DNA from: an uncultured Pelagibacteraceae bacterium
GTDB lineage: Bacteria > Pseudomonadota > Alphaproteobacteria > Pelagibacterales > Pelagibacteraceae
Direction: 5' to 3'
Assembly (NCBI GenBank): GCA_902528545.1
Contig: CABZTB010000003.1
Location: forward strand, 47,433 to 79,432
DNA: 32,000 nt
Part shown: in pieces, positions 1 to 13,263 of the stretch
How the letters are laid out: each line of letters begins with the position of its first letter
Position numbering within the stretch: position 1 is the stretch's first letter
The notes under the pieces: generated by a model
The model's database searches: none
Told to the model about the DNA's origin: nothing
What the model saw: only the letters and a program-made list of their open reading frames with translations
Program-made: the position numbers and the translations under genes

Positions 1-291
1 AGTATTAGAGGCAATATTGGATTTGATTTAGAAATGGATAATGGTTTATCTCTAATGACGATCTATGAAAGAAGTCAAAGTGAAATTGCTCATAGTGATA
101 CCTTATATATAGGGTTTGGCTATGTGCCTGTTGAAAGTACTGAGTATGCTATGAAATTAGATAATAATAAAGCATCTTTAAATTATAAAAGAAATTTAAG
201 TGGTTTTGATATCAACATAAGTTCCAACTATAGTTTAATAAGTGAAATTCCTGAATATGGAACAAACCTTGAATTAAGAAATACATTCTAA
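1..291 (+). CDS. C-terminal fragment of an outer-membrane beta-barrel / autotransporter-like protein (5' end lies outside the window)
   Basis: Frame 1 is open from nt 1, with no stop before the listed ATG at 34, so the ORF enters from the left edge. The sequence alternates hydrophobic and polar residues and ends ...LELRNTF. A C-terminal Phe is the usual OMP barrel signature. Confidence 0.4.
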   Translation, partial: SIRGNIGFDLEMDNGLSLMTIYERSQSEIAHSDTLYIGFGYVPVESTEYAMKLDNNKASLNYKRNLSGFDINISSNYSLISEIPEYGTNLELRNTF

Positions 292-329
292 ACTATTATT
301 AAGAGAGAGAATAACATATATTCATACTG

Positions 330-1742
330 ATGAAAAAATTCTTAGGCATAATTTTTCTGGGACTAATATTAAACAATAATGCTTTTGCTGGACCATATGA
401 AAGTTTGATAAAATTTAATAGATGGCTAAGCTTAAATGGTTATGATCAGTATTTAGATAAAACAGGAGATCCTGTTGATATGGTGCTTGATAGATCGCTT
501 TGTACATCTGAGGCAACTTGGGACGAATGTGTTGGAGCTGATGGAAAATTAATACCAACCAAAGATCGTAAATACACTCTAATTTATCCAAATAATTTAG
601 ATGTAAAAATAATGAAAAGGGGAGGTGGAAACGAAATAAATTATCAAGCCAATCCTAATTTTGGCACTTTACTCTTTTATGTTTTCCATTACTTAGAGGA
701 TATAAAAGGATTTGGTAAATATTTAGTACAACCATCTAAAAATCCAATTAAATTCAAATCAAATTTAATAGATGATAAAATTGTAAAAAAACAATTACAA
801 ACAAAAGCAATTCTAAGTTATCTTTATTTTGAAAATGATGAAATCATTGTTGATGAAATTTCACCTAAGGATCGTTTTGGTATTATCTTTAAAAATGATA
901 CTAAATGGAGTTCCATGTCGATGGGTAAAAGCTTAGTTTCTTACGTGACAGGTCATGCAATTTGTGGCGGTTATATTGATAGTATTGATACAACATTAAA
1001 CGACTGGCCTTTGATCAAGAACACTCTCTATTCTAAAAAAAAATTAATTGATATTCTAAACATGGCTGCTGGAGATCAACAATATGTTGATGATCATGAT
1101 GGATTAAAAAAGACTGGAAGATGGTACAATAGCTTTCCTATATCTGCTTTTGCTGATTTAGAATTAAAAGATTCAGAACCATCTAATTCTAAAAAGTATC
1201 ATTATAATGGTTTAGCAACAAATATTATAATGAACTATGTAATTTACAAAACTGATAAAGATTTTCAAAAACTTTTAAATGAAATTTTTCAAAAAAAAGC
1301 CAAAGTAGAAAATAGTGTATTTTTTTTAAAACAAAAAGGAATTTCAGATAAGCAAGGTCCAGGAAGATATTCATTTAGAGCTAGTAGATATGATTATCTA
1401 AGAATTGCAAAAGCAATCATGGATGATTATCAAAATGATACTTGTGTAGGTAAATATTTAAAAGAAATTCATGAAAGGAGAATTAAAAAAAATTTAAAAA
1501 AAGGACACGAACCTGGCTTTAATCTCTCGAGTACTTATGGTGGACAATTTCATATGGATTATCCAGGTCTAAAAAATAGGGTAGTTTTTGGTTTAGGAGG
1601 TTTTGGTGGTCAGGCGATTTTGATTGATGTGGAAAATTCAAGAATAGTTGTTCTAAATTCTTTGCATTATAATAACAAGAAATTCAAATATAATGTTAAA
1701 AAACTTTTATTAGATCCAATAAAAAACGGAAGATTAAATTAA
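330..1742 (+). CDS. Secreted serine hydrolase, beta-lactamase/PBP-related fold
   Basis: 470 aa. N-terminal signal peptide MKKFLGIIFLGLILNNNAFA|GP. SxxK-type motif in SMSMGKSLVSYVTGHAI. YHYNGLATNII resembles the YxN region. C-terminal GLGGFGGQAILIDVENSRIVVLNS resembles the third conserved box of class C-like hydrolases. Confidence 0.55.
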   Translation: MKKFLGIIFLGLILNNNAFAGPYESLIKFNRWLSLNGYDQYLDKTGDPVDMVLDRSLCTSEATWDECVGADGKLIPTKDRKYTLIYPNNLDVKIMKRGGGNEINYQANPNFGTLLFYVFHYLEDIKGFGKYLVQPSKNPIKFKSNLIDDKIVKKQLQTKAILSYLYFENDEIIVDEISPKDRFGIIFKNDTKWSSMSMGKSLVSYVTGHAICGGYIDSIDTTLNDWPLIKNTLYSKKKLIDILNMAAGDQQYVDDHDGLKKTGRWYNSFPISAFADLELKDSEPSNSKKYHYNGLATNIIMNYVIYKTDKDFQKLLNEIFQKKAKVENSVFFLKQKGISDKQGPGRYSFRASRYDYLRIAKAIMDDYQNDTCVGKYLKEIHERRIKKNLKKGHEPGFNLSSTYGGQFHMDYPGLKNRVVFGLGGFGGQAILIDVENSRIVVLNSLHYNNKKFKYNVKKLLLDPIKNGRLN

Positions 1743-1755
1743 AAAAATTTACTTA
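1731..1755 (+). repeat. Third copy of the core module (agattaaattaaaaaaatttactta)
   Basis: 23/25 identical to 3384-3408 (agataaaataaaaaaaatttactta). It overlaps the last three codons and the stop of the hydrolase ORF. Confidence 0.6.
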
Positions 1756-1773
1756 ATAATATTTATTCGAACC

Positions 1774-1791
1774 AGAGCATGACTAGAGCAT
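1774..1791 (+). repeat. Tandem word pair agagcat-gact-agagcat (11-bp period) upstream of the pilin gene
   Basis: agagcat at 1774-1780 and 1785-1791. It sits exactly 22 nt after the ctta of the junction, the same spacing as the word pair at 2356. Confidence 0.55.
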
Positions 1792-1813
1792 AGAGTGATG
1801 GTATAACAATGTT

Positions 1814-2314
1814 ATGAAACAAAAAGGTTTCACCCTAATAGAACTCCTAGTCGTAGTAGCCATCATTGGTATCCTTGCTGCAGTAGGAGTGGTTGTTTAT
1901 AATGGGTATACGAGTAATGCTAAAAATGCAGTTCTTAAAAATAATCATAAAACAATAATAAAAATGATTAAGGAAGATTTTGTTAAATGTGAAATTGAAG
2001 GAAAACTTGATAGATTTGTTTGGAGCAGTGGTGCAGTTAAAGAATATACAAACTGTACCCTCGCTTTTGATCAAGGTATTTTACAACAACATTTTTTTTT
2101 CGTCGGATTAAAAGACCCAATCTTTGTTAGACCTAGCGCTTGGGGAAATAGGAAAGTTATGGATTCAGGTGCCTTATGGGCTGGATCTCCAAGTGGTTCA
2201 TATAAAATAGGAAAAACTTTTGTTGAAAGTAGTTGGACTAATTTAAAAATCACAACATATATGACTGATGGGGTAACAAAATTAGAAGATAACTTAATAG
2301 TACCAAATAATTGA
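1814..2314 (+). CDS. Type IV pilin / pseudopilin-like protein with a prepilin-peptidase (class III) signal
   Basis: 166 aa. N-terminus MKQKG|FTLIELLVVVAIIGILAAVGVVVY is the canonical G/FTLIE cleavage and methylation motif plus hydrophobic helix. Variable C-terminal globular part has two Cys. Confidence 0.8.
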   Translation: MKQKGFTLIELLVVVAIIGILAAVGVVVYNGYTSNAKNAVLKNNHKTIIKMIKEDFVKCEIEGKLDRFVWSSGAVKEYTNCTLAFDQGILQQHFFFVGLKDPIFVRPSAWGNRKVMDSGALWAGSPSGSYKIGKTFVESSWTNLKITTYMTDGVTKLEDNLIVPNN

Positions 2315-2355
2315 ATTATTTTTATTGGAAAATCTTAATAATTAATTTTCAGATT
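2315..2355 (+). repeat. L module copy 1 (ATTATTTTTATTGGAAAAT + related tail)
   Basis: 19 nt at 2315-2333 are identical to 3586-3604. The following ~20 nt (cttaataattaattttcagatt) are about 65% identical to 3605-3624. Weaker similarity (8/12) extends 12 nt leftward. Confidence 0.7.
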
Positions 2356-2387
2356 CTCGGATCATTCTCGGATCTAGATAGATAAAT
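2356..2387 (+). repeat. Left bracket of the DUF4268 cassette: ctcggatc-att-ctcggatc + tagat + agataaat
   Basis: ctcggatcattctcggatct is identical to 3360-3379 and is followed by the shared agataaa core. The 8-mer repeats at 11-bp period. Confidence 0.8.
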
Positions 2388-2412
2388 TTATGATACATTA
2401 ATATAAAAAATT

Positions 2413-3354
2413 ATGGTTTCGAGACTTAAAAAACAAAAAATAAGAGATATCTGGAAAACAGAAGATAAAGACTTTACTCCATGGTTGGTTCAAAATATTG
2501 CACTTCTTAATGAAGATTTAGGCTTGAATATTCAAGATCCTGAAAGTGAAAAAAAGTTAGATACTTTCAAAGTAGATATCGTGGCTGAAGATGATCAAGG
2601 AAAAGTTATAATTGAAAATCAGTTTGAAAAATCTGATCACGATCATTTAGGAAAATTATTAACTTACATAAGTAACGTAGAAAATACTAAAAAAGCAATT
2701 TGGATTGTAGAAGATGTAAAACCAGAACATCACAGAGCAATAGAATGGCTTAATGCTAATGTAAAAACGTGCTTATTTTTTTTAGTGAAAATTCAAGTTT
2801 TTAAAATAAAGGATAGTGAGCCAGGAGCTCAATTCTTTTTATTATCAGGACCAGATGAAAATATTACGAAGGTTGGAAAAATTAAGGAAGAGGACTCAGA
2901 AAAAGAAAAAATTAAATTTAATTTTTGGTCAGCCTTTTATGAAAAATTAAAACAAAAAAGTAATATTTATAGTAACACAGCTCCAAAGGGCAGAAATTAT
3001 ATGGGTGTAAGTGCTGGGGTAAGAGGGGTCAACTACCTTGTTGCTGCAATGAACAGATCTGGCCAAGTAGAAATCTACATTGATAGAGGAAAAGAAGAGG
3101 GCAAAGAGGCAAATTTAAAAATTTATAATCATTTGGAGAAACATAAATCATCTATTGAAAAAGATTTTGGAAATGAATTAGAATGGAAAAGACTAGATGA
3201 CTCTAGGGCTTGTAGAATAGCATTTAAATCTGATTTAGGTGGTTTCCAAGATGAAGACACATGGGAGGATATTCACAATTTTCTAGTAGATCATTTGATA
3301 AAACTAGAAAAAGCTTTTAAAGGACCGATAAAAGAATTAGATAGGATTTTATAG
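2413..3354 (+). CDS. PD-(D/E)xK nuclease-like N-terminal domain fused to a DUF4268-like C-terminal domain
   Basis: 313 aa. FKVDIVAEDDQGKVIIENQFEKSDHDHLGKLLTY fits a D...E-x-Q/K restriction-endonuclease-fold core. C-terminal FNFWSAFYEKLKQK... resembles DUF4268 as I remember it. Not verified by HMM. Confidence 0.5.
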   Translation: MVSRLKKQKIRDIWKTEDKDFTPWLVQNIALLNEDLGLNIQDPESEKKLDTFKVDIVAEDDQGKVIIENQFEKSDHDHLGKLLTYISNVENTKKAIWIVEDVKPEHHRAIEWLNANVKTCLFFLVKIQVFKIKDSEPGAQFFLLSGPDENITKVGKIKEEDSEKEKIKFNFWSAFYEKLKQKSNIYSNTAPKGRNYMGVSAGVRGVNYLVAAMNRSGQVEIYIDRGKEEGKEANLKIYNHLEKHKSSIEKDFGNELEWKRLDDSRACRIAFKSDLGGFQDEDTWEDIHNFLVDHLIKLEKAFKGPIKELDRIL

Positions 3355-3357
3355 GAT
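3341..3357 (+). repeat. R module copy 1 (ATAGGATTTTATAGGAT)
   Basis: 17/17 identical to 7385-7401. It is internally atagga repeated at 10-bp period. It supplies the last codons and the TAG stop of the DUF4268-like ORF. Confidence 0.75.
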
Positions 3358-3359
3358 CC

Positions 3360-3392
3360 CTCGGATCATTCTCGGATCTGGGGAGATAAAAT
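3360..3392 (+). repeat. Right bracket of the DUF4268 cassette: ctcggatc-att-ctcggatc + tgggg + agataaaat
   Basis: Direct repeat of 2356-2387: 20 nt identical, 4-5 nt divergent, then the shared core. Confidence 0.8.
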
Positions 3393-3501
3393 AAAAAAAA
3401 TTTACTTATTCATCTTGTTCAATTATAAATATTGGCATAAACACTCATGAAATTCATTAATGCCCTCGTGGTGAAATTGGTAGACACAAAGGACTTAAAA
3501 T
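3383..3501 (+). repeat. Left copy of the 119-bp direct repeat (core + tRNA-Leu upstream region + 5' 40 nt of tRNA-Leu)
   Basis: Ungapped alignment with 7427-7545 gives 113/119 identities by my count. Four of the six mismatches cluster in the 10 nt just upstream of the tRNA 5' end. Confidence 0.9.
3462..3501 (+). pseudogene. Truncated tRNA-Leu(UAA) copy: acceptor 5' strand, D-arm, anticodon 5' stem and loop only
   Basis: gccctcgtggtgaaattggtagacacaaaggacttaaaat is identical to 7506-7545. Identity stops one nt past the anticodon loop. No variable arm, T-arm or 3' acceptor strand follows. Confidence 0.9.
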
Positions 3502-3523
3502 AGTTTGAATTGAGGAATTTCAG

Positions 3524-3550
3524 AGTCTCTTATAGTCTCTAATAGTCTTA
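3524..3550 (+). repeat. Three tandem words agtctct / agtctct / agtctta at 10-bp period
   Basis: Copies at 3524-3530, 3534-3540 and 3544-3550, beginning 23 nt after the tRNA-fragment breakpoint. Confidence 0.7.
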
Positions 3551-3585
3551 ATCCCTTATAATCCTAGAACTTTCTAAATCGTTGG

Positions 3586-3624
3586 ATTATTTTTATTGGA
3601 AAATATGAATAATAAATTCTGTTA
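3586..3624 (+). repeat. L module copy 2
   Basis: 3586-3604 is identical to 2315-2333. The tail atgaataataaattctgtta is related to 2334-2355. Confidence 0.7.
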
Positions 3625-3659
3625 AACTAGTAGCAAACTAGTAGTCAGAGAGATAAAAT
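3625..3659 (+). repeat. Left bracket of the 3-gene cassette: aactagtag-caa-actagtag + tcagag + agataaaat
   Basis: 33/35 identical to 7402-7436. The 8-mer actagtag repeats at 11-bp period. The core ends 5 nt before the ATG at 3665. Confidence 0.85.
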
Positions 3660-3664
3660 TTTAT

Positions 3665-5188
3665 ATGTTTGATTTTCTCAAAAACAATAAGTGGATTAAA
3701 TATTATGATGAAATTAAATCATATTTTAACCCAAGATTTTTAATTGATGCAATCATTCCTACAGATATCATTGATACAGCAAAAACAGTAGCAAGCAACA
3801 AATCAGAAGACCAAATATTTAGATTTATAATAGGGTGTGCAATAGTTAGAGGAATACTTATTGCAATTCCTGGAGATGTAGCTGTTGGATTATATATTGC
3901 CCAAGCTATTGATTTTGCAATGGCAGCTAACATAGCAAGACTAGTTGGTTTAGATTTTAAAAAAGAAAATATTTTTAAGTTGTTAGGAGCTGCAAGTCTT
4001 TCTGCAGTTGCTGTGCTTTATGCGTTTGAAAAAGTTTTAAATATTATATTTAAATTCGTAGCTAATTTACCAATTGCGGCACCAGCTTCATTTATTTCTA
4101 CTACAATTACTTCATTGTTTTTGGGTTTTTTTTGTTTTCTCGCTTTTACTGAAATTAAAAATAGTGGTAACAAAAAACTTAAAATACTATCTGTTGGAAA
4201 AATAGCTAAAAACGCATCTACCTTTACTTATAAAATCGGTAAAAATCTAATGACTTTGCTATTTAAAGATATGCCAGGACTTTTCAATCAAGTGAAAGAA
4301 AATGTTAAATCTTTTATGCAGCTAAACATTGACTATAAAAAAAAAATTAAGGGAGAATTTTTTTTTGCTGCAAGTATGGCTTATTTATTAGACGGAAAGA
4401 CACAAAGTTTTGATGGTCCTATAAGTCAAATGTGGCTGGATGCTTGGAGAATGTCGTATACCAATAAATTAGGCCCTGATGCCTCGATTGAAGATATTAA
4501 AAATTTAGCACAACAGTATCAGCCTGAGCAAATGCCTGGTGTTGAGAATTTGGTACAATCAAAATTTTATGAAATTTTGGAGGAAAACTATGAAAATATG
4601 GATGGAGATAATTGGTCAGCAAAACTTTTTACTGATCCGTCACATCCTGCTACTGATGTAAGATTTTATAACTCCGAGACTAATCAAACTTATGAAGTAA
4701 ACTACAAACTAACTGATGACTCTGAATATATTGAGCACCATTTAGAAAAATATCCTGATACACCAGTTGTAACTTCACCTGAAACAGCAGAGAAAATGAA
4801 TAATCCATTAGTCACCGGAGGTCAGTATGAAACTAAAGAAGTTATTAAATTATCAGATGATAATTTTATGAAATTATTAAATTCAAAACATTCACTTTAT
4901 TTGCAAGAGGGGGCCGCAGCAGCAGGTATTATTGTGCTATCAATTTATTTATTTCCTTTTTTCGTTCATTACTTCAAAGAAAATATTGATAGAGAACAAT
5001 TTATGTTAGCTGTTAAGAAATTTGTACCAGATGTTACTACCAAAACATTAAATAGAATAATAATGCTTACACTTATGGGGCCTATTTTTGGATGGTTTTT
5101 ATTAGCAAGATTTTTATTAAATATATCAACCCACGAAAGTGATAATGTTAAAGATATAAAGCAATTATTTTATAAACCCTTAGTATGA
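3665..5188 (+). CDS. Multi-pass membrane protein of unknown function (N-terminal DUF697-like region, central soluble domain, C-terminal TM hairpin)
   Basis: 507 aa. Hydrophobic segments at about aa 52-95, 105-125, 133-165, 415-437 and 465-487. ILIAIPGDVAVGLYIAQAIDFAMAANIARLVGL recalls the DUF697/YcjF-type motif (from memory, unverified). About 230 aa of central hydrophilic domain has no motif I recognise. Confidence 0.6.
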   Translation: MFDFLKNNKWIKYYDEIKSYFNPRFLIDAIIPTDIIDTAKTVASNKSEDQIFRFIIGCAIVRGILIAIPGDVAVGLYIAQAIDFAMAANIARLVGLDFKKENIFKLLGAASLSAVAVLYAFEKVLNIIFKFVANLPIAAPASFISTTITSLFLGFFCFLAFTEIKNSGNKKLKILSVGKIAKNASTFTYKIGKNLMTLLFKDMPGLFNQVKENVKSFMQLNIDYKKKIKGEFFFAASMAYLLDGKTQSFDGPISQMWLDAWRMSYTNKLGPDASIEDIKNLAQQYQPEQMPGVENLVQSKFYEILEENYENMDGDNWSAKLFTDPSHPATDVRFYNSETNQTYEVNYKLTDDSEYIEHHLEKYPDTPVVTSPETAEKMNNPLVTGGQYETKEVIKLSDDNFMKLLNSKHSLYLQEGAAAAGIIVLSIYLFPFFVHYFKENIDREQFMLAVKKFVPDVTTKTLNRIIMLTLMGPIFGWFLLARFLLNISTHESDNVKDIKQLFYKPLV

Positions 5189-5203
5189 GGCTACTTTTAA
5201 AAC

Positions 5204-5845
5204 ATGAAAATTAAGAACAAGAAACTATATAGAATAGATTTTAAACATAGCAAATCCACATGTAATTATGATGAGCATGATGATTATGATGAAATATATG
5301 GAAAGGCTGTAATTGATGAAGGAGATGACAATACTGAAAATTACGTTGATGCAGGTTTAATTGAAGCTTATTTTTTAAACGTAGAGGACATAAAAGAACC
5401 GGTTCATTTTTTATTAGACTCAATATCTGGTGATCATGAGCGTCTAGCTAAATATTTTGACGATGAAAATAAAATTAACGATAAAATTAGAAAATTACTC
5501 AAATTGAGCGAAGAGGATGTTAGAATGATGAGTCTAAATTTTCTCTATATTCATAAATTAAAAGTTTTAAAAAAGTACAGAGGATTAGGAATAGGAAAAA
5601 CCTTAATGCAAGCTATGATAAATGATTATAAAAGAGATAGTTCTCTTGCTTTTTTAATTGCTGCACCCTTGCAATTTAGTGGACGAGAAATAAACGATGA
5701 TCCCAGTGCTCAAGAAAGTTTTAACAATAGAACTGAAGCCCAATCAAGAAAGAAACTTATAGAGTTATATGAGAGTTATGGTTTTTTAAAGATACCTGGT
5801 GGTGAAGGTGATATGGTAGCTTATATTGGAGATTGGTTTTTTTAA
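5204..5845 (+). CDS. GNAT-family N-acetyltransferase with an acidic N-terminal extension
   Basis: 213 aa. LYIHKLKVLKKYRGLGIGKTLMQAMI is the GNAT motif A (R-x-x-G-x-G) acetyl-CoA loop. KLIELYESYGFLKI is motif-B-like. It starts 15 nt after the membrane-protein stop. Confidence 0.7.
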   Translation: MKIKNKKLYRIDFKHSKSTCNYDEHDDYDEIYGKAVIDEGDDNTENYVDAGLIEAYFLNVEDIKEPVHFLLDSISGDHERLAKYFDDENKINDKIRKLLKLSEEDVRMMSLNFLYIHKLKVLKKYRGLGIGKTLMQAMINDYKRDSSLAFLIAAPLQFSGREINDDPSAQESFNNRTEAQSRKKLIELYESYGFLKIPGGEGDMVAYIGDWFF

Positions 5846-7351
5846 CTACAAGTTAAAAGGTTTTAATTTAGCCTGGACAGTTGGTCTAGTTATACTAATA
5901 CCTTCATCATTAAGTTTTAAAGCTATATTTTTGTAAGAGAAACCATCTTTTCTCATCTCTTTAATCAAAGAGATATGCTCTTTATTTAGATTAACGAAAT
6001 AGGGTGTTTTAAAATTATTTTTTTTTGCGTATCTATCAAATTGACTCCTGCTAATTGGTTTGAATTTTTTTGAAAAATCTTTTCTAATATTTGCAAAAAG
6101 TCTTTGTTTTTTAATTTCCTTTTCTAAAAATTTTTTTTCTTTTTTTGTTAAATTAATGTGTTTATATTCCTTATTTCTTAAATTTGGGTTATTTCCATCT
6201 GGATATAAATAGAAAAATAATTCTTTAAATTTTTCTCCAGTAACAACGTTTGAAATGTGTGAGGGGATTACTTTTAATTTTGAAGCAATGGTGTCATATT
6301 TTAATCCATCATTATACATTTTATGTATATTAAAAGCTATTTTCTCTCTAGTCTTAATCATTTTAAGTGGAAAATTATTATTTGTTTTTGAAACTTTCTT
6401 AAAATTACCATGATTAATTATTGAATTTATTTTTTCTCTTATATTCTCTCTATAATCAATTCTAATTAATTTAATTTTTTTTAATTGAGCATATTTTTCC
6501 TTTTCTTTGTCTCTTTTCTTAATTTTCAATAACTCTATTTTTCCATTCCCTTTTTTATTTGCCCAATGTTTTGTTGTAGTATGTTGTTCACCATCTATTT
6601 CTATAAAAATTATATTTCCTTTTTTTTCTTTAATTACGATATCAATATAATGAACATTTCCTTTATATTTAATCTGTTGTTCTATTTCAAAAGGAATTCC
6701 TAAACTATGTAAAGCGTGATAAGCTATTAGTTCATATTTAGAGGCATTACAAAAACTACATTTAACACCTCTTGTTATTTTATTAATATTTTTCTCATGA
6801 ACCTTATGCCACTCATGTATATTACATTTGACTGAGTACTTTTCGTTAGATTTGTATTTTTTATCTTTTTTGATATTTACCGCATTAACGAACCCATTTG
6901 AATAATGATTGACTAACTTTATGATTTGTTTTCCAGTTTTGGGTTTATTAAGTTTACATGTCCCACAACCTCTTCCTTGCAAATGAATTTCATATTTTTG
7001 TTTATAATTCCCATTATGAGTAGGACAAAAATAAGTGATGAAGTTTTTTGAACCTTTATATTTAAAATTTGGGTATTGGTAGAAACTATTATGAACTTTG
7101 CTCAATCTTTCTACATGTTCCTTATTAGTAAGATTGAGATTATTACACTTTGAACAAAATGGGTTCTTTCTAAAGTTAGACATTCCCTGAATATTTTCGT
7201 GATTTTCTGAACAATGAAATTTGATTTTCCAAACTTTACCTTTTCCAGATTTTAGATGAAGTGCATCAATAAATTTCCATTTGAGCTTCTTCTTTTTGCA
7301 TTTAGATATAAATTCTTCTTTAATTTGAGCTATGTTTCTTAAACTTCTCAT
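5846..7351 (-). CDS. Zn-ribbon x3 + Vsr/DUF559-like (PD-(D/E)xK) endonuclease + tandem HTH modules; homing-endonuclease-like architecture
   Basis: 501 aa. Three C-x2-3-H-x14-18-C-x2-C units (aa 46-69, 108-132, 176-201). SKYELIAYHALHSLGIPFEIEQQIKYKGNVHYIDIVIKEKKGNIIFIEIDGEQH...KKRDKEKEKY...IKLIRIDY matches the Vsr/DUF559 pattern. HTH-like DGLKYDTIASKLKVIPSHISNVVTG and DGFSYKNIALKLNDEGISITRPTVQAKL. Confidence 0.65.
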   Translation of the reverse strand: MRSLRNIAQIKEEFISKCKKKKLKWKFIDALHLKSGKGKVWKIKFHCSENHENIQGMSNFRKNPFCSKCNNLNLTNKEHVERLSKVHNSFYQYPNFKYKGSKNFITYFCPTHNGNYKQKYEIHLQGRGCGTCKLNKPKTGKQIIKLVNHYSNGFVNAVNIKKDKKYKSNEKYSVKCNIHEWHKVHEKNINKITRGVKCSFCNASKYELIAYHALHSLGIPFEIEQQIKYKGNVHYIDIVIKEKKGNIIFIEIDGEQHTTTKHWANKKGNGKIELLKIKKRDKEKEKYAQLKKIKLIRIDYRENIREKINSIINHGNFKKVSKTNNNFPLKMIKTREKIAFNIHKMYNDGLKYDTIASKLKVIPSHISNVVTGEKFKELFFYLYPDGNNPNLRNKEYKHINLTKKEKKFLEKEIKKQRLFANIRKDFSKKFKPISRSQFDRYAKKNNFKTPYFVNLNKEHISLIKEMRKDGFSYKNIALKLNDEGISITRPTVQAKLKPFNL

Positions 7352-7384
7352 AATAATAAGTTTACAAAATTATTATTTATATAA

Positions 7385-7401
7385 ATAGGATTTTATAGGA
7401 T
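7385..7401 (+). repeat. R module copy 2 (ATAGGATTTTATAGGAT)
   Basis: Identical to 3341-3357. Here it is intergenic, upstream of the minus-strand nuclease start. Confidence 0.75.
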
Positions 7402-7436
7402 AACTAGTAGCAAACTAGTAGCCACAGAGATAAAAT
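7402..7436 (+). repeat. Right bracket of the 3-gene cassette: aactagtag-caa-actagtag + ccacag + agataaaat
   Basis: 33/35 identical to 3625-3659. Confidence 0.85.
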
Positions 7437-7545
7437 AAAAAAATTTTACTTATTCCTCTTGTTCAATTATAAATATTGGCATAAACACTCATGAAAATAA
7501 CTCATGCCCTCGTGGTGAAATTGGTAGACACAAAGGACTTAAAAT
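7427..7545 (+). repeat. Right copy of the 119-bp direct repeat (core + tRNA-Leu upstream region + 5' 40 nt of the intact tRNA-Leu)
   Basis: See 3383-3501. Confidence 0.9.
7446..7487 (+). promoter_or_regulatory. Candidate tRNA-Leu promoter region (duplicated at 3402-3443)
   Basis: Two sigma70-like readings are possible: ttactt-16-tataaa (7446-7473) or ttgttc-17-taaaca (7459-7487). Both lie 20-35 nt upstream of the tRNA 5' end. AT-rich context makes this weak. Confidence 0.3.
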
Positions 7546-7591
7546 CCTTGCCGCTTGCGGAGTGCCAGTTCGAGTCTGGCCGAGGGCACCA
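7506..7591 (+). tRNA. tRNA-Leu (anticodon UAA), class II with long variable arm, CCA encoded
   Basis: Manual fold. Acceptor gccctcg/cgagggc. Anticodon stem aagga/tcctt with loop cttaaaa. Variable arm gccgcttgcggagt. T-arm gccag-ttcgagt-ctggc. Ends in acca. Confidence 0.95.
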
Positions 7592-7595
7592 CTAA

Positions 7596-8366
7596 ATGAA
7601 TAGGGTTCAAATCATATCTGATAAAAATCAAAAATCTTTAAAGATTAAATCACTAATTCAAAAAAAAATTAAACAGAATAATATAAAACGATCCAATATT
7701 ACGATTGTCATTGGTGGCGATGGTTTCATGCTGCAAACACTTAAAAAGAATAGAAAATCTAAAAAGTTTTTTTATGGTGTAAATTCTGGGAGTTATGGAT
7801 TTTTGATGAACAAATTTTCATCAAAAAATATCATAAGTAATTTACACAAAGCAAGAATGATAACCATCTCTCCACTAGAGATGGTAGTTAAAAATAATAA
7901 GAATCAATCAAAAAAACATATAGCTATAAATGAAGTTTCAATTTTAAGACAAAGTAGGCAAGCTGCTTCTTTATCTATTTATCATGGTTCTAAACAGATT
8001 ATAAAAAAACTTGTCTCTGATGGTGTACTGGTTTCCACACCTGCTGGAAGTACTGCTTATAATTTATCAGTTCACGGACCTATATTAAGTTTGAATTCAA
8101 AAAGATTATCCATATCTCCAATAAGTCCATTTAGACCAAGAAGATGGAAGGGTAAAATTGTAACTGACAAATCTAAAATAAATATCAAGAACTTAAATTC
8201 AAAAAAAAGACCAATTTCTGCTGTTGCTGACAATATTGAGGTAAGGAATGCAAAAAAAATTACGGTAAAAACTAATCAAAAAATTAAATTTAATCTTCTT
8301 TACGATAGAAACAGAAGTTTGCAAAAGAAAATCAAAATAGAACAATTAAGAAAAGAAACATCTTGA
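7596..8366 (+). CDS. nadK: NAD(+) kinase
   Basis: 256 aa. ITIVIGGDGFML (GGDG motif) and DGVLVSTPAGSTAYNLSVHGPIL are NAD kinase hallmarks. It starts 4 nt after the tRNA-Leu CCA end. Confidence 0.9.
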   Translation: MNRVQIISDKNQKSLKIKSLIQKKIKQNNIKRSNITIVIGGDGFMLQTLKKNRKSKKFFYGVNSGSYGFLMNKFSSKNIISNLHKARMITISPLEMVVKNNKNQSKKHIAINEVSILRQSRQAASLSIYHGSKQIIKKLVSDGVLVSTPAGSTAYNLSVHGPILSLNSKRLSISPISPFRPRRWKGKIVTDKSKINIKNLNSKKRPISAVADNIEVRNAKKITVKTNQKIKFNLLYDRNRSLQKKIKIEQLRKETS

Positions 8367-8442
8367 TGGTGCCCCCGCACGGATTCGAACCGCGGACCTA
8401 TTGATTACAAATCAATTGCTCTACCAGCTGAGCTACAAGGGC
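8367..8442 (-). tRNA. tRNA-Thr (anticodon UGU), CCA encoded
   Basis: Reverse complement gcccttgtagctcagctggtagagcaattgatttgtaatcaataggtccgcggttcgaatccgtgcgggggcacca folds as a 76-nt cloverleaf. Anticodon loop is tttgtaa. Confidence 0.9.
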
Positions 8443-8471
8443 ATGCGCAATAATTATTAATTATTCATTAA

Positions 8472-9218
8472 TTAATCAACTCTTTTTTTTAGATAACTTA
8501 AATGATGAAATACAATTGCTGCACTATTTGATACATTTAGGCTTTCAATTTTTTGATTTATCTTAATCTTAATTAAAAAATCTGCATATTTGGATGTATG
8601 TTTATGCATTCCTGATCCTTCAGATCCAAATAACAATATATTATTTCCTTTCCACTCGATTTCAGTAAAGTCTTTTTTTCCATTACCGTCAAAACCATAT
8701 ACCCAAAAATTTTTTTCTTTTAGATTTTTAAGTGTTGAATTGATATTAGAAACCTCAAAAATATTAATATATTCTATTGCACCACTTGCTGCTTTATACA
8801 TAAGTTTACTTTCGCTAGGAAAGTTTCTTTCTTTAATAATCACTCCATCTATATTAAAAGAGGCAGCACTTCTGATCAAAGATCCTATATTTCTTGGATC
8901 AGTTACACCATCAAGACAAACTAATGTTATGTTATCTCTATCTTTAATGTATTCTTTGAGAATAGGTTTAATCATATGCTCAACTTCTGCAACATAACCT
9001 TGATGCTGTAAATTTTCTCTGGTGCTATACTTATCTAGCTCTTTTTTCGTCTTAAAGTAAACTTTGATATCTTTTAACAAGTTTTTATTAGGATTTTTTT
9101 TATGAATATTCTTCTTACTTTCTTCAGTTAAAAATACCCTTAAAACTTTTCTTTTAGGATTACGTAGGGCCTCAATTACAGCATGTTGTCCAATGATAAA
9201 AAAAGATGATTTGTTCAT
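8472..9218 (-). CDS. rlmB: SpoU/TrmH-family RNA 2'-O-methyltransferase, RlmB-like
   Basis: 248 aa. N-terminal substrate-binding region (IGQHAVIEALRNP). SpoU motifs DPRNIGSLIRSAASFN, LLFGSEGSGM and LNVSNSAAIVFH. Confidence 0.75.
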   Translation of the reverse strand: MNKSSFFIIGQHAVIEALRNPKRKVLRVFLTEESKKNIHKKNPNKNLLKDIKVYFKTKKELDKYSTRENLQHQGYVAEVEHMIKPILKEYIKDRDNITLVCLDGVTDPRNIGSLIRSAASFNIDGVIIKERNFPSESKLMYKAASGAIEYINIFEVSNINSTLKNLKEKNFWVYGFDGNGKKDFTEIEWKGNNILLFGSEGSGMHKHTSKYADFLIKIKINQKIESLNVSNSAAIVFHHLSYLKKRVD

Positions 9219-9272
9219 AAAATTACCTTTGTTTTACACGTTTTTTCAAATATTTTCCTATTAAATCACGTG

Positions 9273-9300
9273 TTGCATTTGGACAAATAAAATATATAAA
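9273..9300 (+). promoter_or_regulatory. Candidate promoter for the tRNA-Tyr/tRNA-Gly/tuf unit
   Basis: ttgcat-16 nt-tataaa, about 50 nt upstream of tRNA-Tyr in the divergent rlmB/tRNA spacer. Confidence 0.3.
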
Positions 9301-9348
9301 ACGCTTGTTGTTTGAAGCTTTATTGAACAAGGGGACACTTCCCCTAAG

Positions 9349-9434
9349 GGAGGGGTTCCAGAGCGGTCAAATGGGGCGGGCTGTAAACCCGTTGACTTCG
9401 GTCTTCGAAAGTTCGAATCTTTCCCCCTCCACCA
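9349..9434 (+). tRNA. tRNA-Tyr (anticodon GUA), long variable arm, CCA encoded
   Basis: Acceptor ggagggg/cccctcc. Anticodon loop ctgtaaa. Variable arm tgacttcggtcttc. T-loop ttcgaat. Confidence 0.95.
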
Positions 9435-9478
9435 TTCAATAGTTTTAAGCAATACTGGAGTGTTACTCTTGGGGTTGT

Positions 9479-9552
9479 GCGGGTGTAGTTCAATGGTAGA
9501 ACGCTAGCCTTCCAAGCTGGATGTAAGGGTTCGATTCCCTTTACCCGCTCCA
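9479..9552 (+). tRNA. tRNA-Gly (anticodon UCC), CCA encoded
   Basis: gcgggtgtagttcaatggtagaacgctagccttccaagctggatgtaagggttcgattccctttacccgctcca. Anticodon loop is cttccaa. Confidence 0.95.
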
Positions 9553-9595
9553 AGAAAAATAGTTTATTAAAAAATAAAAGTGAGGAATATAAGTA

Positions 9596-10786
9596 ATGTC
9601 AAAAGAAAAATTTGTTAGAAATAAACCGCATTGTAACATCGGAACAATCGGTCACGTCGATCATGGTAAAACAACTTTAACTGCTGCGATCACTAAAGTT
9701 TTATCTGAAACTGGTGGTGCTCAGGCTGTAGCATATGATCAAATTGATAAAGCGCCAGAGGAGAAAGAAAGAGGGATTACAATTTCAACAGCACACGTTG
9801 AATATGAAACTGAAAAAAGACACTATGCGCACGTAGATTGTCCAGGTCACGCTGACTATGTGAAGAATATGATTACAGGTGCAGCACAAATGGATGGTGC
9901 GATTTTAGTTGTTAACGCTGCTGATGGTCCTATGCCTCAAACAAGAGAGCATATTCTATTAGCAAGACAAGTTGGTGTTCCTGCTATCTGTGTTTATTTA
10001 AATAAAGTTGATCAGGTTGATGATAAAGAAATGATTGATCTTGTCGAAGAGGAGATTAAAGAATTATTAACTTCGTATAAATTTCCAGGTGACAAAACTC
10101 CAATCGCTAAAGGTTCTGCACTTGCAGCAGTTGAAGGTAGAGATGATGAAATTGGAAAAAATTCAATTCTAGAGTTGATGAAGAATGTTGATGAATTTAT
10201 TCCACAACCAGATAGACCAAAAGATAAAGATTTCTTGATGCCAGTAGAGGATGTTTTCTCAATCTCAGGAAGAGGTACAGTTGCAACTGGAAGAGTTGAG
10301 TCAGGTATACTTAAAACTGGTGATGAGCTTGAGATAGTAGGTATTAGAGAAACTAAAAAATCTGTCTGTACTGGTGTTGAAATGTTCAGAAAACTTTTAG
10401 ACTCTGGTGAAGCTGGTGATAACGTTGGTGTACTTTTAAGAGGTGTAGAAAGAACTGATATTGAAAGAGGACAAGTTCTTTGTAAACCAGGTTCTGTTAC
10501 ACCACATACTAAATTTGAAGCTCAAGCTTATGTATTAAAAAAAGAGGAAGGTGGAAGACATACGCCTTTTTTTACAAAGTACAGACCTCAATTCTATTTC
10601 AGAACTACAGATGTAACTGGAGAAGTAGAGTTACCGGCTGGTACCGAAATGGTTATGCCTGGTGATGACGCTAAATTTACAGTTAAATTAATTACGCCAA
10701 TCGCGATGTCAGAGAAATTAAACTTTGCTATTCGTGAAGGTGGAAGAACTGTCGGAGCTGGAGTAGTAACTAAAATTATAGAGTAA
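9596..10786 (+). CDS. tuf: Translation elongation factor Tu
   Basis: 396 aa. [18 protein letters not shown] and NKVD GTPase motifs, with full-length EF-Tu similarity. Confidence 0.98.
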
Positions 10787-10795
10787 ACTCTATAT

Positions 10796-10871
10796 AGGAG
10801 TGTAGCTCAATTGGTAGAGCGCCGGTCTCCAAAACCGGAGGCTGAGGGTTCGAGTCCCTCCGCTCCTGCCA
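10796..10871 (+). tRNA. tRNA-Trp (anticodon CCA), CCA encoded
   Basis: aggagtgtagctcaattggtagagcgccggtctccaaaaccggaggctgagggttcgagtccctccgctcctgcca. Anticodon loop is ctccaaa. Confidence 0.95.
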
Positions 10872-12741: not shown

Positions 12742-13263
12742 ATGATGAATAAAGAACAAAAGAAAAATTATATTGCGGAAATGACAACGCAATTTGAAAA
12801 TAGTAAGGCGGTAATGGTTACTCATTACCAAGGTTTGACCATGACTCAATTAGACGAGTTAAGATCAAAAATGAGAGAACATGGAATAATTTTCAAAATT
12901 ACAAAAAACAGAATTACAAAATTAGCATTAGAAAAAACTAAGTGTAAAGATTTATCAAATTTATTTACTGGCCCAACAGCAGTTGCATTTGGGGAAGATG
13001 CAATTATGTCAGCTCGAATTTTATCTAAGTTTGCAAAAGATAATGAGAATCTTAAGTTGATTGGTGGGATGATGGAAAATGAAATTCTTGATCAAGCTGG
13101 AGTAATGAATGTCGCAAATTTACCTACTTTAGACGAAGCAAGGGCTAATATTGTGGGTATTTTGAATGCATCTGCATCAAAATTAGTGAGTATTTTGCTT
13201 GCACGATCGGAAAAAATGAGTAGTTTACCCCCAGAAAATTCTGAAACACAACCTAAAGAGTAA
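12742..13263 (+). CDS. rplJ: 50S ribosomal protein L10
   Basis: 173 aa. AVMVTHYQGLTMTQLDELRSKMRE. Start could be the second ATG at 12745. Confidence 0.93.
   Translation: MMNKEQKKNYIAEMTTQFENSKAVMVTHYQGLTMTQLDELRSKMREHGIIFKITKNRITKLALEKTKCKDLSNLFTGPTAVAFGEDAIMSARILSKFAKDNENLKLIGGMMENEILDQAGVMNVANLPTLDEARANIVGILNASASKLVSILLARSEKMSSLPPENSETQPKE

Follow-up and report, generated by a model that had tools for sequence, protein, structure and literature searches.

An island upstream of tRNA-Leu in a SAR11 bacterium, probably assembled by small integrase-less elements with matched, element-specific end repeats

The stretch of DNA analysed here (the window, 32,000 nt of contig CABZTB010000003.1 from a Pelagibacteraceae (SAR11) bacterium, positions 47,433–79,432 of the forward strand) contains, directly upstream of its transfer RNA (tRNA) gene tRNA-Leu(TAA), a hypervariable island at positions 290–7429. 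This island was probably built by successive site-specific insertions of small, integrase-less elements into the anticodon loop of the tRNA gene, with a recombinase acting in trans and with short tandem repeats, here called words, serving as its arm-type sites. The window can be read as a stack of non-autonomous elements, one of them intact and two truncated, whose movement probably took place in trans. The stretch 3502–7545 is an intact non-autonomous element with CTAGTAG words, and 2305–3501 is an older element with CTCGGAT words that lost its 5′-tRNA half and its left-hand attachment arm (P′). The stretch 1752–2314 is a still older remnant, truncated at both ends, with CyAGAGC words and a pilin gene as cargo, joined to a truncated promoter copy at 1728–1755. 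A preliminary description of this DNA had already recognized a stacked, horizontally acquired cargo array ending at tRNA-Leu; that observation is confirmed, and the interpretation given to it, an exchange of cassettes with cassette-specific addresses, is partly supported.

The feature that carries this reading is a long direct repeat. Positions 3338–3501 and 7382–7545 are identical at 143 of 164 nt (113 of 121 in the sub-stretch 3381–3501 versus 7425–7545), and the repeat covers the promoter of tRNA-Leu together with the initial 40 nt of its gene (3462–3501 in the displaced copy), stopping at the anticodon loop CTTAAAA, where the homology between the displaced and the intact copy ends after CTTAAAAT. 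A repeat ending at the anticodon loop characterizes a site-specific insertion whose incoming DNA provides both promoter and 5′ half, and the repeated 5′-tRNA half identifies the three-gene block at the right of the array as a classical integrative element seated in the anticodon loop, with attachment sites on its left (attL) and on its right (attR). A partial tRNA in direct repeat is found at the distal boundary and an intact tRNA-Leu at the proximal one. The displaced and proximal leaders differ at 4 positions, which fits each element bringing its own copy. The duplicated tRNA half had escaped the preliminary description, which held that the layout was not that of an ordinary tRNA island, a view that is not supported; the two copies of a core running on into the tRNA-Leu upstream region, which it did report, are real and far longer than described.

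The comparison with related genomes delimited the insertion. A set of 80 SAR11 loci with synteny was gathered from single-cell genomes, metagenome-assembled genomes and isolates (1.33 Mb in total; L-numbers denote these and the metagenome loci compared with the window). The NadK of the window is 78–96% identical to its counterparts in the 80 loci, and tRNA-Leu(TAA) adjoins nadK in all of them. In L006 and L008 the equivalent of window 1–289 is followed by 5 nt and then by the equivalent of window 7430, and L021 and L023 show the same empty-site junction. Since the empty-site relatives join position 289 to 7430, the whole of 290–7429 is insertion, and the relatives are polymorphic for its presence with precise boundaries. 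Among the 61 genome loci with at least 3 kb upstream, extra copies of the 5′-tRNA half were absent from 34, single in 22 and double in 5, and these loci yielded 34 elements of 0.9–8.8 kb. Moreover, a metagenome scan with the junction of the 5′-tRNA half and the AGTC repeats of the P′ arm as query returned at least 120 further loci, and about 70 elements of this kind, of 1–9 kb, were found in SAR11 genomes and metagenomes. The gene content of the relatives shifts at the module boundaries, as anticipated for this locus.

The modules themselves were verified in the window, and all the repeats reported earlier for four of its junctions are present. The left module, L (ATTATTTTTATTGGAAAAT), is exact at 2315–2333 and 3586–3604, its sole other match in the window having 3 mismatches, and the right module, R (ATAGGATTTTATAGGAT), is exact at 3341–3357 and 7385–7401, with no further window match at up to 3 mismatches. 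Word pair A lies at 2356–2374 and 3360–3378 and word pair B at 3627–3645 and 7404–7422, each followed by a core, and the stretches 3625–3659 and 7402–7436, each with word pair B and its core, are identical at 33 of 35 positions by direct reading. A third copy of core and promoter, at 1728–1763, is real but weaker. The two word pairs, formerly taken to be unrelated, both fit CTnGnAnC-3 nt-CTnGnAnC with an 11-bp period, a frame with 4 matches in the window versus 0.15 expected; that each pair is private to the element it brackets proved correct, the words being element-specific. The core 9-mer alone is less specific: AGATAAAAT occurs at 8 sites in the window versus 2.2 expected, 5 of them beyond the array (exact matches at 13018, 14958, 15888, 22841 and 30922), and because of this excess it may represent an A/T-rich motif found generally near promoters in this genome. 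The features of the island and its borders are listed below.

1–291, + strand: 3′ end of the conserved left-flank gene; the left boundary of the island is at 289/290, and 1–289 aligns at 96% in L006 and L008.
290–7429, + strand: the entire insertion (7.1 kb), as defined against the empty-site relatives L006 and L008.
330–1742, + strand: open reading frame (ORF) of 470 amino acids (aa) without a match to any family, forming the island's oldest layer, 98% shared with L003.
1728–1755, + strand: truncated A/T tract from upstream of tRNA-Leu with the start of the promoter, remnant of an old attachment site; L003 is collinear up to 1755.
1752–1799, + strand: tail-like stretch, third word pair (CCAGAGCA tga CTAGAGCA, 1772–1790) and core-like TAGAGTGAT (1791–1799), preceding the pilin gene.
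1814–2314, + strand: type IV pilin-like gene (Pfam N_methyl, 9e-10), cargo of the remnant element.
2305–2387, + strand: left-end module of the DUF4268 element, with L (2315–2333), tail (2334–2355), word pair A (2356–2374) and core (2378–2387).
2413–3354, + strand: DUF4268 gene (Pfam DUF4268, 2e-33), cargo, whose last codons form R.
3341–3392, + strand: right-end module of the DUF4268 element, with R (3341–3357, the 3′ end of the DUF4268 ORF), word pair A (3360–3378) and core (3381–3392).
3384–3501, + strand: displaced tRNA-Leu promoter and leader (3384–3461) and 5′ half (3462–3501), attL of the three-gene element, compared with 7425–7545.
3502–3583, + strand: P′ arm of the three-gene element, with three tandem AGTCTnnnnn repeats (3524–3552) and a degenerate inverted R (3551–3567); matches profile positions 4–82.
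3586–3659, + strand: left module of the three-gene element, with L (3586–3604), tail (3605–3626), word pair B (3627–3645) and core (3648–3659).
3665–5188, + strand: cargo gene of 507 aa, weakly matching PDC-M72B, a candidate defence protein of PADLOC (1e-10).
5204–5845, + strand: GNAT acetyltransferase by family match, cargo.
5846–7351, − strand: phage-type homing-endonuclease-like protein of 501 aa (PHROG_559, 2e-27; PHROG_9084; PHROG_681), cargo.
7385–7436, + strand: right-end module of the three-gene element, with R (7385–7401), word pair B (7404–7422) and core (7428–7436).
7428–7591, + strand: tRNA-Leu promoter and leader (7428–7505) and intact tRNA-Leu(TAA) (7506–7591; ARAGORN; Rfam, 58.6 bits).
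7596–8366, + strand: nadK, the conserved right flank in the 80 syntenic loci.

In L003 the stretch with the 470-aa ORF continues into a full promoter and 5′-tRNA half. The left end of the DUF4268 element matches the left-end profile at positions 3–89; the 5′-tRNA half and P′ arm that usually precede L are missing there, and the pilin gene abuts L directly. The word CTAGAGC of the third pair was also seen in L041, L002 and L191.

The same grammar was kept in the 34 genome junctions and in at least 120 metagenome junctions. From the left, a small element consists of the 5′-tRNA half, about 23 nt, three tandem AGTCy repeats with a 10-bp period, an inverted R, L or an L-like sequence, a tail, a word pair, a core and the cargo; the left ends fall into at least 4 sequence types with one common order in the alignment of the 34 genome junctions. 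The right end usually comprises R, a word pair, a core, an A-tract and the promoter, followed by a copy of the 5′ half or by the intact tRNA. Profile models built from the modules and run on the 1.33 Mb of related loci matched exclusively upstream of tRNA-Leu and always on the + strand, so that the modules, if not the 9-mer alone, are locus-specific and not ordinary intergenic sequence. The 7-mer word is identical at the left and right ends in 63 of the 72 elements with both pairs readable, most of the remaining mismatches being 1 nt or a register shift, and in a shuffle test on the first 25 elements the observed matching was 17.1 of 19 versus a null mean of 12.7 and a maximum of 14.5. There are at least 26 word types, with positions 1 and 4 conserved, 2 and 6 less strictly so, and 3, 5 and 7 variable, and where elements abut, the words differ at every junction with both words readable. 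More than 60 elements retain both complete arms and matched words, and elements were found that are 97.9% and 99.8% identical between genomes whose flanks are about 79% identical.

A number of further observations concern R and the arms. R overlaps the stop codons of unrelated genes, namely the DUF4268 gene (3341–3357) and the homologue of the 507-aa gene in L062 (9789–9809), and holds stop codons in 2 of its 3 reading frames; a degenerate R-like stretch also follows the 507-aa gene of the window, at 5183–5203. In the reverse complement of R (7385–7403 and 3551–3567), the 9 nt TAAAATCCT match the anticodon loop and the 3′ stem of tRNA-Leu (7536–7547) exactly (shuffle p about 0.0015). R and inverted R may have been copied from the right half of the attachment core. 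The similarity between the core and the anticodon loop was not significant (p about 0.2–0.6). P′ arms start after the anticodon loop with sequences (e.g., GCCGAGGGAT; L003:7260–7270, L012:4480–4490, other left ends of types 2 and 4, and window 3501–3517) that look like the tRNA's 3′ acceptor strand and can pair with its 5′ strand. The possibility that the partial tRNA and the beginning of the P′ arm together adopt a tRNA-like fold was considered and discarded: acceptor pairing appears in the minimum-energy folds, yet these are no better than shuffles (z = 0.1 to 1.8).

The search for the enzyme that might move such elements gave no integrase in the window (1–32000), nor any transposase. In the small elements, tblastn returned none, whether the queries were pelagiphage integrases (genome loci), these together with the L071 integrase (metagenome loci) or the 545-aa integrases described below (both sets), and none was present among the 25 of 66 Pfam families listed for small-element cargo; beyond the small elements, these tblastn searches returned the prophage of L071, a fragment in L027, and L070. 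The 501-aa ORF was examined as a hidden recombinase and dismissed on its matches to phage homing-endonuclease families. It has Cys-rich repeats, weak Pfam matches to REase_MTES_1575 and HTH_38, a weak match to a Vsr/DUF559-like nuclease domain, and C-terminal helix-turn-helix motifs. Situated in the newest element and, unlike all the rest of the cargo, on the opposite strand, it is a candidate selfish-gene passenger. The earlier statement that an integrase is lacking holds for the window, but relatives with the same arm layout encode a tyrosine integrase of about 545 aa. They were found in seven metagenome contigs (L093, L100, L117, L127, L146, L181 and L186) and, in integrated form, in the single-cell genome locus L070, that is, at 1 of the 34 genome junctions and at 7 among the 120 metagenome junctions listed. 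Their order is word pair and core, a promoter-like stretch, the 5′-tRNA half, a P′ arm with AGTC repeats and, about 60 nt on, an ORF of 541–552 aa, past which come several small ORFs and a primase-helicase (AEP-TOTE and DUF5906). In 7 of the 7 metagenome contigs the primase is upstream and a large ORF downstream of the attachment site, and on this account the contigs represent the free state, circular or concatemeric, in which the attachment site is intact; as concatemers, L100 and L181 repeat every 7,823 bp. The small elements possess both arms of this autonomous family without the integrase, as is expected of cis-mobilizable, non-autonomous integrative elements.

The 541–552-aa ORF was assigned to the tyrosine integrases by Pfam PF00589 (above threshold) and PHROG_1 (4e-19), and its predicted structure (mean predicted local distance difference test score 81.5) matched the Tn1549, XerH and lambda integrases. 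One predicted domain resembles the arm-type binding domains of the P4-like HPI and HAI7 integrases (target-normalised template-modelling score 0.65–0.77, root-mean-square deviation 2.2–2.7 Å). The family comprises 92 clusters at 90% identity, mostly on contigs of up to 9 kb, and includes five IMG/VR contigs (L210–L214) of 7.8–13.8 kb. The integrase-bearing elements named above carry words on both arms, the P′-arm copies falling inside integrase codons 8–25 or thereabouts, a segment predicted to be disordered; the arm words would thus dictate, at the DNA level, a hypervariable and predicted-disordered N-terminal peptide. In fact, 2–3 copies of the arm word and a GAGATA core were seen within the first 25 codons or so (L117:4295–4370, L100, L181 and L070:1249–1330). 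Integrase pairs that are 98–100% identical in residues 170–540 are just 43–71% identical in residues 34–150 if their word-encoded peptides differ, whereas in same-word pairs the N- and C-terminal regions are about equally similar. In the 90–100% identity bin, the mean N- minus C-terminal identity was −5.8 in 68 same-word pairs versus −24.9 in 93 different-word pairs, a pattern that fits a putative swappable specificity module at the N-terminus of the integrase. Moreover, 6 of the 8 word types of the integrase-bearing elements also occur in small elements, and the core-proximal P′ arm is nearly identical in L070, which bears the integrase, and L003, a small element.

The cargo of the small elements includes type I, IIG and III restriction-modification systems, Mrr, DUF4268 and candidate defence proteins, tripartite ATP-independent periplasmic (TRAP) and ATP-binding cassette (ABC) transporters, superoxide dismutase and pilins, and 75 of 80 cargo ORFs are co-oriented with the tRNA promoter. 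Pilin-like genes recur as cargo (window 1814–2314; L142:4540–5650, with two pilin cassettes in a row), which suggests that the island diversifies surface structures besides defence. Multi-cassette elements, with R, word pair and core closing every cassette, were found in L142, L191, L003 and L118, and cargo-less platforms (L-tail, word pair, core, promoter and tRNA) in L016, L026 and L066. A 711-aa cargo protein of L009, L022 and L055 is also present in L019 (7420–7660) and L067 (1830–2070), where it lies directly behind the native left flank, with no 5′-tRNA half, P′ arm or L and with R, word pair and core intact at the right end. A right end without a left end is likewise seen at many loci, for example L004, L010 and L019, and loss of the left attachment end seems common (L019 and L067, also L004 and L010).

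Cargo blocks also appear in different backbones. The core-cargo-R block of L035 and L061 is 99.83% identical over 2,331 nt, and the words of the two elements differ in concert at both ends (CTAGTAGC versus CTAGAAAC), with P′ arm, L and promoter 78–90% identical and nadK flanks 79% identical. Similarly, the 507-aa gene of the window is 92.8% identical to L062 8255–9793, in an element with other words, and the homology begins exactly at the core AGATAAAAT (window 3651) and finishes at the stop codon and R; the DUF4268 gene is 91.7% identical to L012 8279–9231, where the words are different, and its boundaries behave like those of L062. Since near-identical cargo carries different words at both ends, the words, to judge from these alignments, are a property of the attachment backbone and not of the cassette, and core-to-R blocks are exchanged between backbones with the words staying behind. 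The exchange of cassettes proposed by the preliminary description was borne out to that extent, but the proposed cassette-specific addresses were not. One possible route of exchange is recombination within the short stretches conserved at the block edges, selection favouring matched arms; a secondary activity of the integrase at word-pair/core sites is another.

These findings can be combined in the following mechanism. Each element would carry a complete two-armed attachment region: a P arm, at the right end once integrated, with R, a tandem 8-bp word pair of 11-bp period, the core or A/T tract, the tRNA-Leu promoter and the 5′-tRNA half, and a P′ arm, at the left end once integrated, with about 23 nt, three AGTC repeats, an inverted R, the L-tail, the same word pair and a core. 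Integration would swap the chromosomal promoter and 5′-tRNA half for the copy of the element and displace the old copy to the far side, so that the newest element adjoins the intact tRNA, whose 5′ half and promoter would be supplied by the most recent arrival. The recombinase would come in trans from the relatives of about 8 kb that encode the 545-aa tyrosine integrase and a primase-helicase and share the layout of the attachment site. The words are predicted to be the arm-type binding sites of that integrase, which would explain why they match within an element and differ between elements. The cargo would probably be transcribed by read-through from the displaced tRNA promoter, and core-to-R blocks may additionally be reshuffled between backbones by recombination at conserved edges.

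Several findings weigh against insertion in trans at the tRNA. The partial tRNA is missing in 2 of the 3 window elements, and their classification as truncated rests on the comparison with other loci. No integrase with the words of the window (CTAGTAG, or exact CTCGGAT on both arms) was recovered, and the integrase-bearing elements lack L, R and inverted R. The link between words and N-terminal domain could reflect physical linkage alone, the words lying just upstream of the sequence coding for the domain, and two closely related integrase pairs differ in words but not in this domain. No circular or free attachment-site form of a small element was found, and at none of about 17 metagenome junctions with words readable on both sides were the two words the same; the contigs L161 (1,476 nt) and L168 (1,628 nt), each a single small element with exact terminal overlaps of 43 nt and 60 nt, respectively, in the promoter and 5′-tRNA half, could be circles or repeat-bounded assemblies. 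Finally, the exchange of cargo at word edges is not explained by integration at the tRNA alone.

In a further reading the word pairs would form a heterospecific address system, read by tyrosine integrases with swappable arm-binding N-terminal modules and with binding sites in their own first codons, the same enzyme inserting elements at the anticodon loop of tRNA-Leu and capturing or exchanging core-to-R cassettes at word-pair/core sites. This two-level arrangement is an unlikely extension, and if true SAR11 would possess a mobile integron-like cassette platform with dozens of mutually exclusive specificities. A purely integron-like alternative, in which a platform upstream of tRNA-Leu receives cassettes of one or a few genes at its word-pair/core sites, with the words as matching addresses and the partial tRNAs secondary, draws on the homology blocks that start at the core and stop at R (L035 versus L061, and the window versus L062 and L012), on the multi-cassette elements and on the empty platforms. 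Deletion between the flanking 35-bp repeats would, however, also produce empty platforms; one cassette occurs with different words, which are hence not cassette addresses; and the anticodon loop is the sharpest and most frequent boundary. Neither a dedicated recombinase nor an attC-like hairpin was found, single-stranded folds reaching only −3.5 to −7.7 kcal/mol, in agreement with the earlier reading, and in the integrase-bearing relatives the same words serve as arms on either side of a tRNA core. We consider this alternative improbable.

Another explanation, to which we likewise give little credence, though marginally more, holds that the elements are inert fossils, decayed from integrase-bearing elements or prophages and immobile, whose cargo varies by homologous recombination and deletion only. 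The lack of an integrase in the window, the truncation of 2 of its 3 elements, the many loci with a right end and no left one and the failure to find a free form of the small elements all speak for it. However, more than 60 elements have both arms complete and the words matched, elements 98–99.8% identical are shared by genomes with flanks of about 79%, and L, R and inverted R are common to small elements with unrelated cargo and absent from the integrase-bearing ones, a confinement which implies that the small form itself propagates. That L, R, words and core are generic regulatory sequence, the ordinary promoter, terminator and operator motifs of SAR11 intergenic DNA, is very improbable and already largely refuted. 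The enrichment of AGATAAAAT across the window agrees with it, as does the overlap of the core with the A/T tract of the native tRNA-Leu promoter, present at the empty site, but within the 32-kb window L, R and the word frame are found at no other place, and the modules are confined to the region upstream of tRNA-Leu in the related loci. In addition, a sigma-70-like promoter scan, its consensus being uninformative here, gave fewer sites than shuffled sequence (19 versus 34.7), and an Rfam search returned tRNAs alone and no other RNA family. Insertion of trans-mobilized elements into the anticodon loop hence remains the reading we prefer.

Phages use the same target. HTVC019P-type pelagiphages integrate at the SAR11 tRNA-Leu(TAA) with a mid-tRNA crossover, the phage DNA supplying the 5′ part (bioRxiv 10.1101/410191). 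HTVC105P and MedDCM-S35-C6 show an exact 43-nt match to window 3459–3501, and the attachment arms of pelagiphages carry phage-specific repeated words. The two systems are alike in target gene, mid-tRNA crossover and incoming 5′ part (Zhao et al., bioRxiv 10.1101/410191), and differ in that the pelagiphage arms are without the L, R, word or core of the window and that their integrase, of about 295 aa, is too dissimilar to find the 545-aa family. A pelagiphage origin was rejected: HTVC105P, HTVC109P and MedDCM-S35-C6 have the 5′-tRNA half but no L, R, word or core, and because these modules are absent from them they are not the source of the elements. Pattern scans of IMG/VR, run for R and for junctions of types 1 and 2, returned either no match or chance matches that lacked a tRNA. 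A prophage-like insert with a 347-aa tyrosine integrase lies directly upstream of tRNA-Leu in the SAR11 single-cell genome AG-457-N18 (L071:8796–9950). There the tRNA is joined at ...gaCTTAAAATCC, the same point of the anticodon loop, with its 5′ half unrestored, and ARAGORN no longer calls a tRNA. The stop codon of the integrase is followed by GTGCAT words, three in tandem, with a period of 11 bp. On the other side of the locus, four tRNA genes (Thr, Tyr, Gly and Trp) lie within 3.3 kb past nadK (window 8367–10871), and in L027 (3627–4088) a pelagiphage-like integrase fragment past nadK, near the tRNA-Thr region and at the contig end, may mark a second integration hotspot in this tRNA cluster.

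SAR11 is the most abundant marine bacterium, and its routes to flexible genes are poorly understood. The locus is a recurrent insertion hotspot at which defence, pilin, transporter and metabolic genes arrive as plug-ins of 1–9 kb without a recombinase of their own, which suggests how a streamlined bacterium gains defence and other flexible genes. If trans-mobilization is true, most of the traffic at this hotspot would consist of non-autonomous elements dependent on rarer integrase-bearing satellites, with specificity set by hypervariable arm sites. This would provide a testable model of island assembly in streamlined genomes and a natural set of orthogonal integrase/arm-site pairs.

Among known systems, the tycheposons of Prochlorococcus make successive integrations at island tRNA genes that are separated by partial tRNA copies, newcomers pushing older elements inward (Hackl et al., bioRxiv 10.1101/2020.12.28.424599). 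To that extent they resemble the present elements in stacking cargo at a tRNA of a streamlined marine bacterium with partial tRNA separators, and the integrase-bearing relatives share their module content, a large tyrosine recombinase and a primase-helicase. The window elements differ from the tycheposons described there in having neither an inward-facing recombinase nor a replication module and in their host, SAR11, and in their elaborate conserved ends (L, R, inverted R and word pairs), of which there is no mention in the parts of the preprint searched by keyword. Virion-encapsidated integrative mobile elements (VEIMEs), which are marine phage satellites, are reported from Pelagibacter genomes, and about 20% of them are without an integrase (Eppley et al., PMC9618062). 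The integrase-bearing relatives are like VEIMEs in size (7.8–9 kb), in forming concatemers at the assembly level (L100 and L181), in their presence in viral contig collections (L210–L214) and in carrying an integrase and a primase/helicase, whereas the window elements are cargo carriers of 1–4 kb without satellite genes. In the literature searched, we found no description of an abundant, dedicated non-autonomous form with its own modules, of hypervariable end-matched arm words shared with integrase-bearing relatives, or of modular core-to-R cargo blocks.

The likeness to integrons lies in co-oriented, mostly promoterless cargo beside a strong promoter, a conserved 3′-end module and multi-cassette arrays. 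The differences are the lack of IntI in the window or flanks and of attC hairpins, as the preliminary description had judged, and boundaries that are mainly a tRNA half-site; the R/word-pair/core stretch consists of direct repeats, and its weak folds arise solely from CTAG and GATC palindromes within the words. That description also rightly set the array apart from insertion sequences and transposons, the flanking repeat being 120–165 bp of tRNA and promoter, and had noticed no terminal inverted repeats; a pair of R and inverted R (13 of 17 positions) does exist, but inside the attachment arms. The phage-side attachment sites (attP) of lambda and P4 type have arm-type integrase sites, tandem direct repeats flanking a short core, and are bound through an N-terminal arm-binding domain. 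The elements described here similarly have a long attachment site (about 330 bp) with tandem repeats on both arms, and their relatives an integrase with a predicted N-terminal arm-binding domain; they differ in that the arm sites are hypervariable (at least 26 types) and that the P′-arm copies lie inside the first codons of the integrase itself. A parallel in organization is given by the cis-mobilizable elements (CIMEs) of streptococcal integrative and conjugative elements (ICEs), integrase-less, non-autonomous DNA between functional attL and attR sites that sits beside its relatives in a tandem array at a tRNA-type site. CIMEs are few in number, and they arise from ICEs through deletion. The SAR11 elements are likewise non-autonomous, integrase-less, flanked by attL and attR and arranged in tandem at a tRNA, and they differ in that the non-autonomous form outnumbers the autonomous one and has conserved modules of its own.

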